This document shows, in pieces, positions 7,768-14,028 of a stretch of DNA of 32,000 nucleotides (positions are counted from its first letter, which is position 1; each line of letters begins with the position of its first letter). The position numbers were made by a program, and so were the translations under genes. The DNA lies in the NCBI RefSeq assembly GCF_009734345.1, contig NZ_CP032551.1:2040001-2072000 (forward strand). Reading direction: 5' to 3'. The DNA is from Pseudidiomarina andamanensis (GTDB lineage: Bacteria; Pseudomonadota; Gammaproteobacteria; Enterobacterales; Alteromonadaceae). The notes under the pieces were generated by a model, which saw only the letters and a list, made by a program, of their open reading frames with translations, had not been told where the DNA came from and ran no database searches.

Positions 7768-8982
7768 ATGGCCAAAGGATCTTTTTTCTCGTTATTTCGC
7801 AAAAATAAGCAGAGCGATGCTGAGCAGGCATCGACAGAGAAAGACCACGAACAACACGAACAGCAGCAAGAGCCGCAACAAGAACAGCAGCTGAAACATG
7901 AATCAGTCGCGTCCGAAGCACTTCCAGAAGAGCCGTCAGTAGCCGAGGTGGCTGCGCCTGATGCCGCTGAAATTTGTGCACAAGTTACCGCCGAATCAAA
8001 AGCTGCCGAGCAAGCGAAACAACCTGAAACCCAGTCAAAGCCAAGCTTGTGGAAACGTTTAACCGCCGGGTTACGCAAAACATCGTCAGCCATTGGCGAC
8101 GGTTTGTGGGGTATTTTTAAAGACAATAAAATTGATGACGAGCTGTTTGAGGAGCTCGAAACTCAGCTCTTAACCGCCGATATTGGCGTGCCAACAACAT
8201 TGAAAATTGTCGAGCGTTTGACCGAGCAAGCGAATCGGAAACAACTCAAAGATTCCGCCGAGCTGTTTAAATTGTTGCAGCAAGACATGACGGATATTTT
8301 GTCCCCCGTGGCACAACCATTAACTATTCCAAACGACCATGAAGGCCCGTTTGTGATTCTCATGGTAGGTGTGAACGGAGTTGGTAAAACCACAACGATT
8401 GGTAAGTTAGCCCAGCAATTTAAGCGCGAAGGCAAGTCGGTGATGCTAGCGGCCGGGGATACCTTCCGTGCGGCGGCGGTTGAACAACTACAAGTGTGGG
8501 GCCAGCGTAATGACATTCCGGTGGTTGCCCAACATACAGGTGCCGATAGTGCATCAGTGATTTATGATGCGGTTGAAGCAGCCAAAGCGCGTGGTGTTGA
8601 TGTGCTGATTGCCGACACTGCAGGGCGTTTACAGAATAAAGCGCACCTGATGGACGAGCTGAAGAAAGTGGTGCGCGTGATGCGCAAGCTGGATGAACAT
8701 GCACCGCACGAAGTGATGTTAACGCTGGACGCAGGCACAGGCCAAAATGCTATAAGCCAAGCTAAGTTATTTACCGAAGCCGTTGGCGTGAGTGGTATTA
8801 CACTAACTAAACTAGATGGTACGGCGAAAGGCGGTGTAATTTTTGCTATTGCCGACCAATTTAATATTCCAATTCGCTACATTGGTGTGGGCGAGGGAAT
8901 AGACGATTTGCGACCGTTTGATGCGCAAGAATTTGTTGATGCCTTATTTCAACGCGAACTGAAAGAGACACAACCATCATGA
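7768..8982 (+). CDS. ftsY: signal recognition particle receptor FtsY
   Basis: An acidic, Q/E-rich N-terminal domain is followed by an NG domain with GVNGVGKTTTIGK, DTAGR and TKLDG motifs. ftsE and ftsX follow. Confidence 0.95.
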   Translation: MAKGSFFSLFRKNKQSDAEQASTEKDHEQHEQQQEPQQEQQLKHESVASEALPEEPSVAEVAAPDAAEICAQVTAESKAAEQAKQPETQSKPSLWKRLTAGLRKTSSAIGDGLWGIFKDNKIDDELFEELETQLLTADIGVPTTLKIVERLTEQANRKQLKDSAELFKLLQQDMTDILSPVAQPLTIPNDHEGPFVILMVGVNGVGKTTTIGKLAQQFKREGKSVMLAAGDTFRAAAVEQLQVWGQRNDIPVVAQHTGADSASVIYDAVEAAKARGVDVLIADTAGRLQNKAHLMDELKKVVRVMRKLDEHAPHEVMLTLDAGTGQNAISQAKLFTEAVGVSGITLTKLDGTAKGGVIFAIADQFNIPIRYIGVGEGIDDLRPFDAQEFVDALFQRELKETQPS

Positions 8983-10796: not shown

Positions 10797-11663
10797 ATGA
10801 GCTCTGAAATTACTAGTATGGCATTAGCTGTTCCACAGTCGAGTGGCAGCTTAGAGGCGTACATTTCGACAGTGAACCGCATTCCTATGTTATCGGCAGA
10901 GGAAGAGCGCGAGCTGGCGACACGCTTGCAGGAACAGGACGACTTAGAAGCTGCTCGTCAGCTGATCATGTCGCACCTGCGCTTTGTCGTACATGTTGCC
11001 CGCAGCTACTCAGGCTATGGTCTGCCTCAAGCGGACTTAATTCAAGAAGGTAACATTGGTCTCATGAAAGCGGTACGTCGTTTCGACCCTGCGGTTGGCG
11101 TGCGCTTAGTATCGTTTGCGGTACATTGGATCAAAGCTGAAATTCATGAATATGTGCTGAAAAACTGGCGCATGGTCAAAATTGCAACCACCAAAGCGCA
11201 ACGTAAATTGTTCTTCAACTTGCGTAAAATGAAGAAGCGTTTAGGTTGGTTCACCAACGAAGAAGTGAATACCGTTGCCGAGACGTTGGGTGTAAGCACC
11301 AACGAAGTATTGGAAATGGAAGCGCGCATGAGCGCGTATGATCAAGCATTCGAATTGAGCTCGGACGATGATGATGCGAAAGATAATAGCACCTATTCGC
11401 CAGCACAATATCTTGAGGACAAACGCTCAGACTTAGCTGAAGAAGTGGAAAATGAGCAGTGGGAAAACCACACGCAACGCCGCTTATTGTCAGCCATCAA
11501 TACACTCGATGAGCGCAGCCAAGATATCGTACGTGCACGTTGGTTAGACGAAGAAAATAAAACCACGCTACAAGAACTCGCTGATAAATATCAGGTTTCT
11601 GCTGAGCGGGTACGTCAGCTCGAAGCGAATGCCATGAAGAAACTACGCATGGCAATGTCTTAA
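10797..11663 (+). CDS. rpoH: RNA polymerase sigma-32 heat-shock factor
   Basis: The RpoH box [13 protein letters not shown] is present, along with sigma-70 regions 2 and 4. The gene follows ftsX as in E. coli. Confidence 0.95.
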
Positions 11664-11680
11664 AGAAAACACACTAACAC

Positions 11681-11710
11681 AAAAACGCCGGCTTCATCGC
11701 CGGCGTTTTT
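11681..11710. terminator. bidirectional rho-independent terminator after rpoH
   Basis: AAAAA-CGCCGGC-ttcatc-GCCGGCG-TTTTT: a 7-bp GC stem flanked by an A5 run and a T5 run. Confidence 0.85.
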
Positions 11711-11730
11711 ATTTGGTTGGTAATTAGTTC

Positions 11731-11806
11731 TTAGTTCCACCACACCAGCGTTATGGGAACTTCACCACCGGTATATTCAAACTCAACACTGACTAAACCA
11801 CCATTG
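11731..11806 (-). pseudogene. displaced 3' remnant (last 24 codons plus stop) of the lipoprotein gene found intact at 13465-14028
   Basis: The - strand translates to NGGLVSVEFEYTGGEVPITLVWWN*, versus SGGLVSVEFEYTGSEVPITLVWWN* in the intact gene. Confidence 0.85.
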
Positions 11807-11913
11807 ACTACCATGGAAATAGGTTTCTGGATGCAGGAATTAAATGCTTCTGAAAAACTAGGTCTGAAATTAAGTAATTACCTATCGATTTCTATAGAGT
11901 ATCGTATTTGATA

Positions 11914-11942
11914 TTGACTTCAGCTTTAAATGTTACTAATTT
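11914..11942 (+). promoter_or_regulatory. candidate sigma-70 promoter for the island genes
   Basis: TTGACT (11914-11919), a 17-nt spacer, then TAATTT (11937-11942). Confidence 0.4.
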
Positions 11943-12004
11943 GTAAATGCGAAATGGAAAAGGGATGTATTTTGCGCTTCTACCACTACAAAGGAACGTC
12001 ATCA

Positions 12005-12547
12005 ATGAAGAATTTCTCTTTTACATTTACGTTGCTCCTCTTATTTACCCTATTCTCTACCGATGCAATAGCTGGAGATGAAGCCAACAAACTGAGTTTA
12101 TGGCACAAACAAGTTTCAGCATCGACAGCTTTAATAAAGTCAGAGAATCAACTGAGTATTTTAGAAACACACCCCATTTGGAATGAGCTCTCCAGTTATG
12201 CTCAGAGCGAATTTAGATCTAGCCTTACATTCAATGATAAAGGCTTAACAACATTTAATTTTGGAGTTCTAGAAGAAGAGCTGACAGTATCAAAAATTTA
12301 TAATTTACTTTCACTCTTTGGCCAACAAGCCTATGCAAGTTTTATGGTGAACGCTCGAGTTGAGACCGATGCTGATGTATTAATTTTGAATAGACCAATG
12401 TTAAATCAAAGAGAAGAGCGACCAAATAACTATAATGACACGAATATTTCGATTATGGTTCTTCTGGGAGAGCGTATGCATTATAGATGCTCTGAACGCG
12501 CTACATGTAGTCCAAGTGAAAACGATATCTGTACCCACAACTGTTAA
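12005..12547 (+). CDS. hypothetical secreted protein with a C-terminal 4-cysteine tail
   Basis: The ATG at 12005 is preceded by AGGA 9 nt upstream. The signal peptide is MKNFSFTFTLLLLFTLFSTDAIA|GDE. The last 19 residues read C-x5-C-x7-C-x3-C, and the final residue is Cys. I recognise no family. Confidence 0.6.
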   Translation: MKNFSFTFTLLLLFTLFSTDAIAGDEANKLSLWHKQVSASTALIKSENQLSILETHPIWNELSSYAQSEFRSSLTFNDKGLTTFNFGVLEEELTVSKIYNLLSLFGQQAYASFMVNARVETDADVLILNRPMLNQREERPNNYNDTNISIMVLLGERMHYRCSERATCSPSENDICTHNC

Positions 12548-12554
12548 TTCTGAA

Positions 12555-12587
12555 TCAGTCACTAGGAGGATCGGACCTAGTGACTGA
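12555..12587 (+). other. perfect 12-bp-stem hairpin between the two island genes
   Basis: TCAGTCACTAGG - aggatcgga - CCTAGTGACTGA. There is no following T-run. GGGGG (a possible RBS) and the ATG of the next gene follow. Confidence 0.6.
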
Positions 12588-12607
12588 GCTGAAAGGGGGT
12601 TGTACCT

Positions 12608-13399
12608 ATGCTCTTATCAGGAATGTGGATCAGCGTTATATTAATTAGCTTACCTCCGCATATAGACACCTCTTGTAGTGCGCCCCAAAATATTTTAGAT
12701 CAGGCAAGAGAAATAGATAAAGAGCACAGCAAACTGACGACCACGAAAGACGGTGTGCTTGTCGATAATAGAGGCCCAAACTTTTCTCGCTTTGCGAACG
12801 ATTGTTTGAACGACTTTTTTAAGAGAGATGAAGAAAAATACAACGAAAAACAAAAGCATTTGATTTTTAGTGCAGTTTCTAAAACTTACTTTTACTCTCG
12901 AGATAAAAATCTTTTAAAAGAATATAAAACCTACTTAAATACGTCAGGAAATGAGTATCCACCAGGAAAAAAGTACATCCAGGAAAATCTTGTTCAATTT
13001 CGGGGAAGGGAGTTAACAGGGCGAAAAATAATTTCAAGCGACGGGTCGTTGACAGATTTTACCGAACAAAATGTAATACTAATTATCTCATCACCTTATT
13101 GTGAAAATTCAAAAGATTTAAAACAGTGGATTTCACGAGAATTGCCTAATATTTCAACGAATATAATATGGGCCGTACGAAGACCTATAGGGATGAGTAT
13201 TGACGAGTTTCAAATGAATAGAGATTATACAAACTATTCTTTGTTATTAAATAGCTCAGATTGGGACGATATTGGGGTATGGGATACTCCAACAGTCTTA
13301 CATGTTCAGAATGGTAAAGTGATTCGGCAACAAGTTGGGAATCTTCCGGAAACCAAAAAATACTTGAAAGAATACGAAGAGTTTCAGGTCGCAAACTAA
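12608..13399 (+). CDS. hypothetical signal-anchored protein with a C-terminal TlpA/ResA-like thioredoxin fold and a CxxS motif
   Basis: The N-terminus is hydrophobic (MLLSGMWISVILISL). The C-terminal half matches the redoxin layout: ELTGRKIISSDGSLTDFTEQNVILIISSPYCENS (CENS in place of CxxC) and a cis-Pro loop, GVWDTPTVLHVQNGKV. Confidence 0.5.
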   Translation: MLLSGMWISVILISLPPHIDTSCSAPQNILDQAREIDKEHSKLTTTKDGVLVDNRGPNFSRFANDCLNDFFKRDEEKYNEKQKHLIFSAVSKTYFYSRDKNLLKEYKTYLNTSGNEYPPGKKYIQENLVQFRGRELTGRKIISSDGSLTDFTEQNVILIISSPYCENSKDLKQWISRELPNISTNIIWAVRRPIGMSIDEFQMNRDYTNYSLLLNSSDWDDIGVWDTPTVLHVQNGKVIRQQVGNLPETKKYLKEYEEFQVAN

Positions 13400-13424
13400 G
13401 ACCCGGATTGTAACTTCCCAAAAT

Positions 13425-13540
13425 ACAAAAACGCCAGCTTTTTTATTTGCTTGGTAATTAGTTCTTAGTTCCACCACACCAGCGTGATGGGAACTTCACT
13501 ACCAGTATATTCAAACTCAACACTGACTAAACCACCACTG
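13425..13540. repeat. right copy of the ~120-bp direct repeat (degraded terminator plus the functional 3' end of the lipoprotein gene)
   Basis: See the left copy. This copy lacks 12 nt of the terminator hairpin, reading AAAAACGCCAGC-TTTTTT. Confidence 0.9.
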
Positions 13541-14028
13541 TCAGCTATTGCGACAAGGCCATCGCAGTCGACGTTTTCAGCACACAGAAAGTCATACTGG
13601 TAAAATGCATATACGCCTGCCGTTTGCTCGTTGGCGGTGAATGGATTACCTTCTAGCGTTACTTCGTTGTACACGTAGCTTGTGCCAATTGCGTCGGGTT
13701 GTGAACTAATCACTTCGACGAGCTCGATAGATGTCGCACTGCCATCAGCGACATTACCCGTATCGACATCTTTTTCAATAACGCGTAATTCATACGATGT
13801 GCCGAATTGATGCTCGAAACCAACAATACTATCAGCAAACATTTCACGACCACTGTCAGATGTCGCGGTTGCGGCCAAAGCCGGTGTGAATTGAATGCCC
13901 AATCCATAATAGACCGGCGCCGACTCAACGGAGACATTAAACTCAGTCCCTTCGTCAGAGTCACTCGAACCGCCACAACCCATCAAAGTTGCCGTCATTA
14001 GAATGGAAAAAATAGTTTTAATTTTCAT
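13465..14028 (-). CDS. hypothetical lipoprotein, last gene of the gpmM-envC-yibQ operon
   Basis: 187 aa with signal peptide and lipobox LMGC. The start overlaps the yibQ stop by 11 nt. Confidence 0.6.
   Translation of the reverse strand: MKIKTIFSILMTATLMGCGGSSDSDEGTEFNVSVESAPVYYGLGIQFTPALAATATSDSGREMFADSIVGFEHQFGTSYELRVIEKDVDTGNVADGSATSIELVEVISSQPDAIGTSYVYNEVTLEGNPFTANEQTAGVYAFYQYDFLCAENVDCDGLVAIADSGGLVSVEFEYTGSEVPITLVWWN

Follow-up and report, generated by a model that had tools for sequence, protein, structure and literature searches.

What is the function of a gene pair in which one protein carries all of its cysteines at its C-terminal end, and the protein encoded next to it is thioredoxin-like with a single cysteine in its active site? 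The question is raised by two adjacent open reading frames, ORF1 and ORF2, of Pseudidiomarina andamanensis. They are located in a stretch of 32,000 nucleotides (nt) (contig NZ_CP032551.1, positions 2,040,001 to 2,072,000 of the forward strand), which is called the window below; coordinates refer to it unless a locus is named. We tentatively read the pair as a divergent copy of a widespread, undescribed two-gene envelope module, which would combine a disulfide-stapled exported protein with a dedicated monothiol isomerase. The features of the pair are as follows.

12005-12547, + strand: ORF1, 180 amino acids (aa), MKNFSF..., WP_156268323.1, "hypothetical protein" at NCBI.
12005-12073, + strand: putative signal peptide of ORF1, residues 1-23, ending in ...TDAIA and followed by GD (cleavage site by sequence reading only).
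12074-12394, + strand: conserved body of ORF1, residues ~24-130, SLxFNxKGLTxFN...LExELT...Y.LLSLFG (family alignments and AlphaFold).
12395-12475, + strand: variable, low-confidence linker of ORF1, residues ~131-157 (model confidence and family variation).
12476-12547, + strand: cysteine tail of ORF1, residues 158-180, MHYRCSERATCSPSENDICTHNC, and the stop codon.
12555-12587, + strand: stem-loop between the ORF1 stop codon and the ORF2 ribosome-binding site (inverted-repeat search).
12608-13399, + strand: ORF2, 263 aa, WP_156268325.1, "hypothetical protein" at NCBI and "Thioredoxin domain-containing protein" in UniRef.
12674-12676 and 12803-12805, + strand: C23 and C66 in the N-terminal helical domain of ORF2 (alignment of relatives).
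13055-13396, + strand: thioredoxin-like domain of ORF2, residues ~150-263 (predicted topology and invariant residues).
13100-13111, + strand: active site of ORF2, C165-E-N-S168.
13286-13291, + strand: cis-Pro loop of ORF2, T227-P228, within W-D-T227-P228-T-V at 13280-13297.

The longest reading of ORF1 begins at 11930; the NCBI form has 180 aa. The only cysteines are C162, C168, C176 and C180 (codons at 12488, 12506, 12530 and 12542). All are in the last 19 residues, ...YRCSERATCSPSENDICTHNC, with the spacing C-x5-C-x7-C-x3-C, and the final residue of the protein is Cys. The preliminary description of this locus had noted the same tail, together with the AIA/GD N-terminus and the cysteine-free body, and the sequence bears these out. 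A degenerate DNA pattern for the tail has one match in the window (12482-12547), against 0.00 expected. Shine-Dalgarno-like sequences are present 5' of both genes. To judge from its sequence, ORF1 is probably exported through Sec.

The AlphaFold model of ORF1, built on a 68-sequence alignment, has a predicted local distance difference test (pLDDT) score of 86.6 and a predicted template modelling score of 0.77. The pLDDT is over 95 at residues ~40-130 of the body and 76-90 before them, and drops to about 55 in the linker (131-157). The tail is modeled as a beta-hairpin (strands at 158-164 and 167-176) with a pLDDT of 96. Because this value is high, the cysteine hairpin may be a structured part of ORF1 packed on the body. 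Neither the model nor the conservation in the family shows any sign that the tail is a cleaved or detachable peptide. The tail, described earlier as possibly bacteriocin-like, is probably not a detachable peptide of that kind, as the hairpin is modeled with confidence and is conserved like the body, unlike typical cores of ribosomally synthesized peptides with post-translational modifications (RiPPs). Foldseek against PDB and BFVD returned nothing significant for the model, and a profile search of PDB sequences with ORF1 gave no match.

Is the pair an orphan, as first described? Word-indexed searches with ORF1, with ORF2 and with an ORF2/P0004 alignment returned near-identical copies and the distant proteins P0002 and P0004 only. 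An exhaustive HMMER search over representative proteins (50%-identity clusters), with a profile of ORF1 and P0002, detected 663 clusters at E <= 1e-3, of which 208 reached E <= 1e-10; most are 150-200 aa long. The orphan status is thus overturned at the family level, although it holds for close relatives. Neither the ORF1 family nor the ORF2 family matches Pfam, NCBIfam, PADLOC or PHROGs, in line with the earlier statement that neither protein belongs to a named family, and literature searches found no description of the pair.

The architecture of the ORF1 family is constant: a signal-peptide-like N-terminus, a body of ~100 residues, a linker that varies in length and sequence, and a terminal cysteine tail. 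A hydrophobic, signal-peptide-like N-terminus is present in 138 of the 147 Met-initiated sequences among the 150 listed. The body has the motif SLxFNExGLTGFxY..LE.ELT..qIY.iLSLFG. The terminal motif D[HY]xxYxCxxRATCx6IC[TM]SxC is seen in about 110 of the best 150 of the 663 members, and the four tail cysteines are invariant in the 68-sequence alignment. ORF1 is clearly a member. It matches the 68-sequence profile with E = 1.2e-47 (hmmsearch), every nearly invariant column is present, and it shows the signal peptide, the FNxxGLTxF...LSLFG body, the variable linker and the terminal Y-x-C-x5-C-x7-C-x3-C-COOH.

The number of cysteines in the family is informative. Among mature tail-bearing members, 78 have four cysteines and 28 have six, and only two have an odd count. 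The additional cysteines of the six-cysteine members are pairs located in the linker. Such even parity argues that all cysteines are disulfide-bonded, with no thiol left to link ORF1 permanently to its partner. A lasting disulfide tether from C165 of ORF2 to the tail is accordingly disfavored, as exported members almost always have an even count.

To see what accompanies the tail gene, the tail DNA pattern was searched in a species-representative genome collection. It gave 62 loci, nearly all of them true family members. The hosts are Stenotrophomonas, Xanthomonas, Pseudoxanthomonas, Luteimonas, Dyella, Rhodanobacter, Roseateles, Massilia, Glaciecola, Psychrosphaera, Alkalimonas, Rheinheimera, Arsukibacterium, Eremiobacterota, Gaiellaceae and others. 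In about 49 of the 62 loci, the tail gene is followed immediately, on its own strand, by a gene for an ORF2 homologue; where no partner is seen, the tail gene mostly lies at the margin of the retrieved DNA. Partners have ~300 residues, and their C-terminal domain matches the profile of ORF2, P0004 and P0091. The contig of P0002 has the same arrangement: the adjoining next gene encodes P0004, with CHFC and TPT motifs, which matches ORF2 with E = 1e-5. Clustering of the neighboring ORFs of the 62 loci revealed no third conserved gene, and the genomic contexts differ. Four loci (L004, L037, L056 and L058) have two tail genes followed by one partner. A mirror-tree comparison of ORF1 and partner sequences (Pearson 0.74, Spearman 0.24) is dominated by close relatives and was not used as evidence.

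Fusions connect the two families directly. Two metagenomic contigs encode proteins of 418 and 419 residues (L075 2098-3357 and L076 2251-3507; P0091) that contain, in this order, an ORF1-type body without a tail, a helical domain and a thioredoxin domain with CHFC. These Rosetta-stone fusions tie the ORF1 body to the partner. Together with the next-gene partner and the lack of a third conserved gene, they agree with the self-contained exported module proposed in the preliminary description.

Members without a tail fall into two groups. Several seemingly tail-less representatives are frameshifts, nonsense mutations or truncated gene calls. In L082 (183-760, a Logan contig) a frameshift hides the tail, and an intact CHFS partner is alongside. 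In L085 (3001-3540 of CP031416.1, a complete genome) a TAA stands just before the tail, separating the conserved aromatic position (here F, in most members Y) from the first Cys of the tail, and the CHFS partner is intact. Selenocysteine at this in-frame stop was rejected, since the codon is TAA. The truly tail-less members other than the fusions have a CxxC partner (CHFC in L001, CNPC in L077) or no partner (L078-L080). The combination of a tail-less member with a CxxS partner was not seen, in a sample that is biased by the tail and CHFC motifs used in the search.

Relatives without a signal peptide are found at five loci (L003, L010, L018, L036 and L046). They have ~124 residues, with a shortened body and the same tail, and there is no thioredoxin-like neighbor beside them. 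The absence of the partner ties it to the exported form, and it fits with a partner that is needed only in the oxidizing envelope. Downstream of the tail gene in L010 (4453-6508, a Gaiellaceae metagenome-assembled genome) are genes for a B12-binding radical S-adenosylmethionine (SAM) enzyme, an ATP-binding cassette (ABC) ATPase and an FtsX-like permease. The radical SAM enzyme is split by frameshifts, and its best NCBIfam match is TIGR03975, "RiPP maturation radical SAM C-methyltransferase" (E = 3e-21). There is no maturase at L003, L018, L036 and L046. In some lineages, the tail could possibly serve as a modifiable core.

The partners are characterized by a monothiol active site. Among 50 partners, 37 have C-x-x-S and seven have C-x-x-T; the others are C-x-x-C (four), C-x-x-A (one) and a truncated sequence (one). 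Thus, C-x-x-S/T is the norm of the partner family (44/50), and the CENS of ORF2 is not a local loss of CxxC. The single active-site cysteine and the retained Thr-Pro loop recognized at the outset proved to be family features: C165, T227, P228 and G244 are invariant across 44 partners. ORF2 has CENS in the place of the CxxC of canonical dithiol oxidoreductases (Trx, DsbA, DsbC/G, TlpA/ResA/CcmG). The residue before the cis-proline is typically Thr in DsbC and DsbG, Val in DsbA and Ile in thioredoxin (PMC2665069), and the ORF2 family has the DsbC/DsbG-type Thr, T227.

The closest relative of ORF2, from Alkalimonas cellulosilytica, is 32% identical over the full length and has the motif CKFS. ORF2 and this relative are the shortest partners, lacking a stretch of ~50 residues in the helical domain, and have GN or GF in place of the conserved GWP after strand 4. 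In Stenotrophomonas, at least three paralogous module types are distinguished by the two residues between Cys and Ser/Thr: CAPS (L009, L028, L029, L032 and L059), CGFT (L015, L023, L045 and L051) and CAFS (L031 and L034). In L032, both module genes are read as a single ORF of 476 aa.

Does the C-terminal domain of ORF2 have a thioredoxin fold? ORF2 and five partners from other genera have no Pfam or NCBIfam match. The matches of P0004 and P0091 to PF13098 (Thioredoxin_2) are subthreshold (E 0.002 and 0.021). When the profile of 44 partners was compared with PDB sequences, 12 of the 16 matches listed were thioredoxins, including the ten best (E 0.0075-0.5). These matches fall on the cis-Pro/beta3-beta4 region and align T227-P228 to the I/T-P-T loop of thioredoxin. 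The comparison of the partner profile with Escherichia coli TrxA by hhalign gave a probability of 73%. The AlphaFold model of ORF2 is poor (pLDDT 52.8) because it was built on a 4-sequence alignment. It has five helices followed by a beta-alpha-beta-alpha-beta-beta-alpha order (strands at 156-162, 186-190, 229-234 and 237-243; helices at 165-178, 198-203 and 247-259), and C165 comes right after the strand VILIISSP and opens the helix 165-178. Nearly all Foldseek matches of the model are thioredoxins (E 0.05-0.6). These lines are individually weak but agree, and give moderate support to a predicted thioredoxin fold.

The thioredoxin fold of the first description was therefore retained, but not its TlpA/ResA-like label. 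There is no match to PF08534 or PF00578 (Redoxin and AhpC-TSA) even at E <= 10, and the N-terminal half is helical, which also speaks against a CcmG-like label. About 130 residues of predicted all-helical domain are present between the short, hydrophobic N-terminus of ORF2 and the thioredoxin-like fold. A DsbC-type N-terminal dimerization domain was not found in ORF2, either as a Pfam match or in the predicted all-helical structure. In the ORF2 subfamily, C23 and C66 are both present in seven of eight relatives and jointly absent in the eighth; they probably form a structural disulfide in the helical domain. The relatives have clear signal peptides or lipoboxes, and these, together with the covarying C23/C66 pair, point to export of ORF2.

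A stem-loop is located between the two genes. In the window, it has a perfect 12-bp stem and a 9-nt loop with no U-tract, and its minimum free energy is -23.9 kcal/mol (z = -2.2; z-scores are against mononucleotide shuffles). In the 70 nt after the stop codon of the tail gene at 40 loci, the median z is -2.3, and z is below -2 in 23 of the 40. The stems at these 23 loci (L013, L034, L008, L057 and L022, for example) are 10-14 bp long, unrelated in sequence and mostly not followed by a U-tract. The stem-loop could be a conserved attenuator or transcript stabilizer that keeps the product, ORF1, above the catalyst, ORF2.

We infer a disulfide state for the tail, a direction for the chemistry and an expression ratio for the pair as follows. 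ORF1 would be exported by Sec and fold into a compact domain, with its C-terminal 23 residues forming a beta-hairpin stapled by two disulfides. The hairpin would require the two right disulfides out of three possible pairings. ORF2, exported as well, would recognize ORF1 by its helical N-terminal domain. The thiolate of Cys165 would attack mispaired disulfides of the tail, and the resulting mixed disulfide would be resolved by the tail's own cysteines. ORF2 would thus be a dedicated disulfide isomerase or proofreader and not an oxidase. Protein disulfide isomerase (PDI) variants with CxxS keep the isomerase activity and lose the oxidase activity. With no second cysteine, ORF2 could not be oxidized to an internal disulfide by DsbA/DsbB. 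Because a monothiol cannot form an internal disulfide, recycling by a DsbD-type reductant would not be needed either, and this would explain why two genes are sufficient and how they can move as a cassette. The stem-loop would keep ORF1 in excess over ORF2.

By analogy, the module would work most like the dedicated thiol-disulfide helpers that are encoded beside their substrates, as in PedC/pediocin and DsbL/DsbI-AssT. PedC/PapC is a thioredoxin-like protein encoded beside the four-cysteine class IIa bacteriocin pediocin PA-1, and is thought to ensure the right pairing of its two disulfides. In the Gram-positive bacteria that have it, PedC is a CxxC protein, an ABC transporter and an immunity gene belong to the same system, and the product is a cleaved peptide of 44 residues. 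In contrast, ORF2 is monothiol, there is no transporter or immunity gene at the pair, and the hairpin apparently stays on a folded protein of ~150 residues. PedC is described as a putative thiol-disulfide oxidoreductase (PMC4919988). No sequence relationship between PedC/PapC and ORF2 was detected.

DsbL of uropathogenic Escherichia coli is a dedicated envelope catalyst encoded, with DsbI, beside the gene of its one substrate, AssT. It is a dithiol CxxC oxidase recharged by its membrane partner DsbI, whereas ORF2 has neither a membrane partner nor a second active-site cysteine. DsbC and DsbG are CxxC proteins with many substrates, which depend on DsbD and have a beta-rich dimerization domain. 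The ORF2 family differs from them by CxxS/T, an all-helical N-terminal domain, a single adjacent presumed substrate and the lack of a Pfam Dsb match. The likeness would be in the exported thioredoxin fold, the additional N-terminal domain for substrate handling and the Thr before the cis-proline (PMC2665069), and in the nucleophilic first cysteine that attacks substrate disulfides.

Natural monothiol sites are also present in eukaryotes. ERp44 (CRFS) and the AGR-type PDIs of the endoplasmic reticulum have a C-x-F-S-like site and form mixed disulfides with selected clients; they have several clients and mainly retain or escort proteins. Their likeness to ORF2 is one of mechanism only. Bufferins are small RiPPs with cysteines, exported by Sec and periplasmic in their action, and are widely distributed in Proteobacteria (10.1101/2024.03.18.585515). 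Before export, their cysteines are modified by an MNIO enzyme and partner proteins from the same cluster. The window has no MNIO (DUF692) or partner of it, and neither recurs among the 62 loci. Likewise, the neighborhoods in the window and at the exported-type loci do not have the maturase, peptidase or exporter of a RiPP or class II bacteriocin.

How did the pair come to this genome? The features around it are listed below.

10797-11663: rpoH, the upstream neighbor of the pair.
11676-11806: left copy (~131 nt) of a direct repeat (repeat search).
11681-11710: intact rpoH terminator hairpin within the left copy (terminator scan).
11731-11806: dead copy of the 3'-terminal ~76 nt of the DUF4377 gene within the left copy.
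11807-13421, + strand: unique AT-rich insert, with ORF1 and ORF2 as its only genes.
13422-13540: right copy of the direct repeat (repeat search), which continues into the true 3' end of the DUF4377 gene.
13465-14028, - strand: DUF4377 lipoprotein gene, the convergent downstream neighbor of the pair.

The pair is a strain-variable, AT-rich insertion of 1.7 kb flanked by direct repeats. The GC content is 0.33-0.40 across the patch that holds ORF1 and ORF2, versus 0.45-0.53 in the flanks. A related strain has the empty site, in which rpoH is followed directly by the DUF4377 gene (L072 2000-2200; Logan SRR36607744). The ~131-nt repeat consists of the rpoH terminator and the last ~76 nt of the DUF4377 gene. 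In the alignment with L072, the left copy departs from the empty site by two mismatches as far as 11806, and the right copy shows a few substitutions and a 12-nt deletion in the terminator hairpin. In the variant L070, the right copy has an intact hairpin as far as the contig reaches. Neither an integrase nor a transposase lies within the inserted segment, and plasmid and phage searches with the pair gave no match. Several Logan assemblies contain the segment as a separate contig of ~1.7 kb.

Variants of the island (L064 and L068-L070, compared with 12005-13399) differ in ORF1 by five nonsynonymous changes (F4L, L13V, R71K, L154P and E156D) and no synonymous change, and in ORF2 by two nonsynonymous changes and one synonymous change. 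All key residues of both proteins are unchanged. At least seven independent assemblies carry the two reading frames unbroken.

The pair in the window is just downstream of ftsY-ftsE-ftsX-rpoH. The module also adjoins ftsY in two distant CHFC-type loci, where L001 1897-2232 and L033 3896-4216 match the window at 8347-8682. This proximity may be a coincidence or a recurrent neighborhood.

Several observations weigh against a dedicated isomerase. The structural model of ORF2 is poor, and ORF2 matches no Pfam thioredoxin family. The tail-less members with a CxxC partner (L001, L075/L076 and L077) are not explained by a redoxin that matures only the tail. The role of the stem-loop as an attenuator is inferred, some of the hairpins run into the beginning of the partner gene, and z was computed with mononucleotide shuffles. 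The five nonsynonymous changes against no synonymous one in ORF1 mean that purifying selection in this lineage is not demonstrated, and the numbers are too small to infer selection. Maturation of the tail by the redoxin, as first suggested, is still the best reading, but the redoxin of the tail-less relatives shows that it is not solely for the tail.

Tail-less members whose partners are all CxxC, or which are fused to one (L001, L075, L076 and L077), raise an alternative that we consider rather unlikely. ORF1 and ORF2 would be the two subunits of an envelope oxidoreductase with other substrates, the body of ORF1 docking on the helical domain of ORF2. The hairpin on its flexible linker would be a swinging arm, supplying in trans the resolving or shuttle disulfide lost in the change from CxxC to CxxS. 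The tails of Erv2 and TrxR are known shuttle arms of this kind, and the linker before the ORF1 tail is variable and modeled with low confidence; the tail itself, however, is predicted to be an ordered hairpin, not free. Fusions of body, helical domain and thioredoxin domain (CHFC) without a tail fit a split relay, and the combination of a tail-less member with CxxS was never seen. However, the loci were found by the tail motif or the CHFC motif, so the sampling is biased, and three or four tail-bearing members do have CxxC partners (L033/L074, L053 and L062). The stem-loop, together with the arrangement of two tail genes before one partner, speaks against a 1:1 stoichiometry.

A historical version of the idea is a new kind of envelope thiol system, in which one redox center was split over two proteins: a thioredoxin fold without its resolving cysteine would act together with the disulfide-bearing hairpin, which a partner of previously unseen fold presents on a flexible arm. 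The CxxC would have been divided between them, with tail and CxxS/T on one side and no tail and CxxC or a fusion on the other. A related version is that the thioredoxin-fold protein is the sole tailoring enzyme of a Sec-exported, RiPP-like product matured outside the cytoplasm. We doubt that either holds.

The preliminary description also proposed that the redoxin holds or neutralizes its partner. Here, the tail or the whole of ORF1 would be a secreted antagonistic effector, a toxin or bacteriocin, and ORF2 would be the immunity protein that traps it as a mixed disulfide in the producer. The pair is indeed a small mobile two-gene cassette, foreign in composition and strain-variable, with paralogous modules in Stenotrophomonas and with ORF1 variants that differ by nonsynonymous changes only. 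Yet across 663 clusters the tail is highly conserved, whereas antagonistic systems have variable cores or toxin domains, and PADLOC, PHROGs, plasmid and phage searches gave no match. The L010 gene without a signal peptide, beside a RiPP-type B12 radical SAM enzyme and an ABC exporter, is suggestive of such a product, but near the pair and at the exported-type loci there is no double-glycine site, peptidase, exporter or secretion gene. Neutralization itself finds no support. The stem-loop suggests an excess of ORF1, and a hairpin that lowers the expression of a downstream immunity gene would endanger the producer. One partner can serve two tail genes, and with an even number of cysteines there is no free thiol that could trap the effector stably. 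An antagonistic function is therefore improbable.

We give equally little credence to the handling of metals or metalloids, in which the tail cysteines, kept reduced, would be envelope ligands of a soft metal (Cu, Zn, Cd or Hg) and ORF2 would keep or return the tail to the thiol state by a monothiol mechanism using a small thiol. We know of no knuckle or ribbon pattern with the spacing C-x5-C-x7-C-x3-C. The four cysteines are retained by the relatives without a signal peptide, whose cytoplasmic surroundings are reducing and unlikely to allow disulfides, and this favors metal binding; the additional cysteines of the six-cysteine members, on the other hand, are strictly paired, like disulfide loops. 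Bufferins show that exported cysteine-containing peptides that bind copper exist (10.1101/2024.03.18.585515), but no metal-resistance, MNIO or transporter gene is conserved beside the pair.

That the pair in P. andamanensis is a recently acquired, non-functional and unexpressed remnant is very improbable: the foreign composition, the absence from a related strain, the five nonsynonymous and no synonymous differences in ORF1, the broken-tail relatives (L082 and L085) and the status of ORF2 as the most divergent and shortest partner seen, without the GW after beta4 and ~50 residues of the helical domain, would suit decay, but both frames are intact in the independent assemblies, the four tail cysteines, C165 and T227-P228 are all kept, and both ribosome-binding sites and the stem-loop are present.

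Accounts of disulfide handling in the bacterial envelope mostly rest on a small set of general catalysts (DsbA/B and DsbC/G/D). The family of ORF1 and ORF2 adds an unannotated two-gene unit, present in hundreds of clusters, Burkholderiales and Alteromonadales being among its hosts, that consists of a naturally monothiol, thioredoxin-like fold and one very conserved cysteine hairpin. The protein that bears the hairpin has a confident model without a counterpart among solved folds. If the dedicated isomerase mechanism is true, ORF2 would be a natural "isomerase-only" catalyst that requires no electron supply. The pair would be a simple system for mixed-disulfide chemistry, and its travel as a 1.7-kb cassette would be explained. 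Several hosts are plant pathogens or opportunistic human pathogens that are easy to manipulate, so that the function of the exported product is directly testable.

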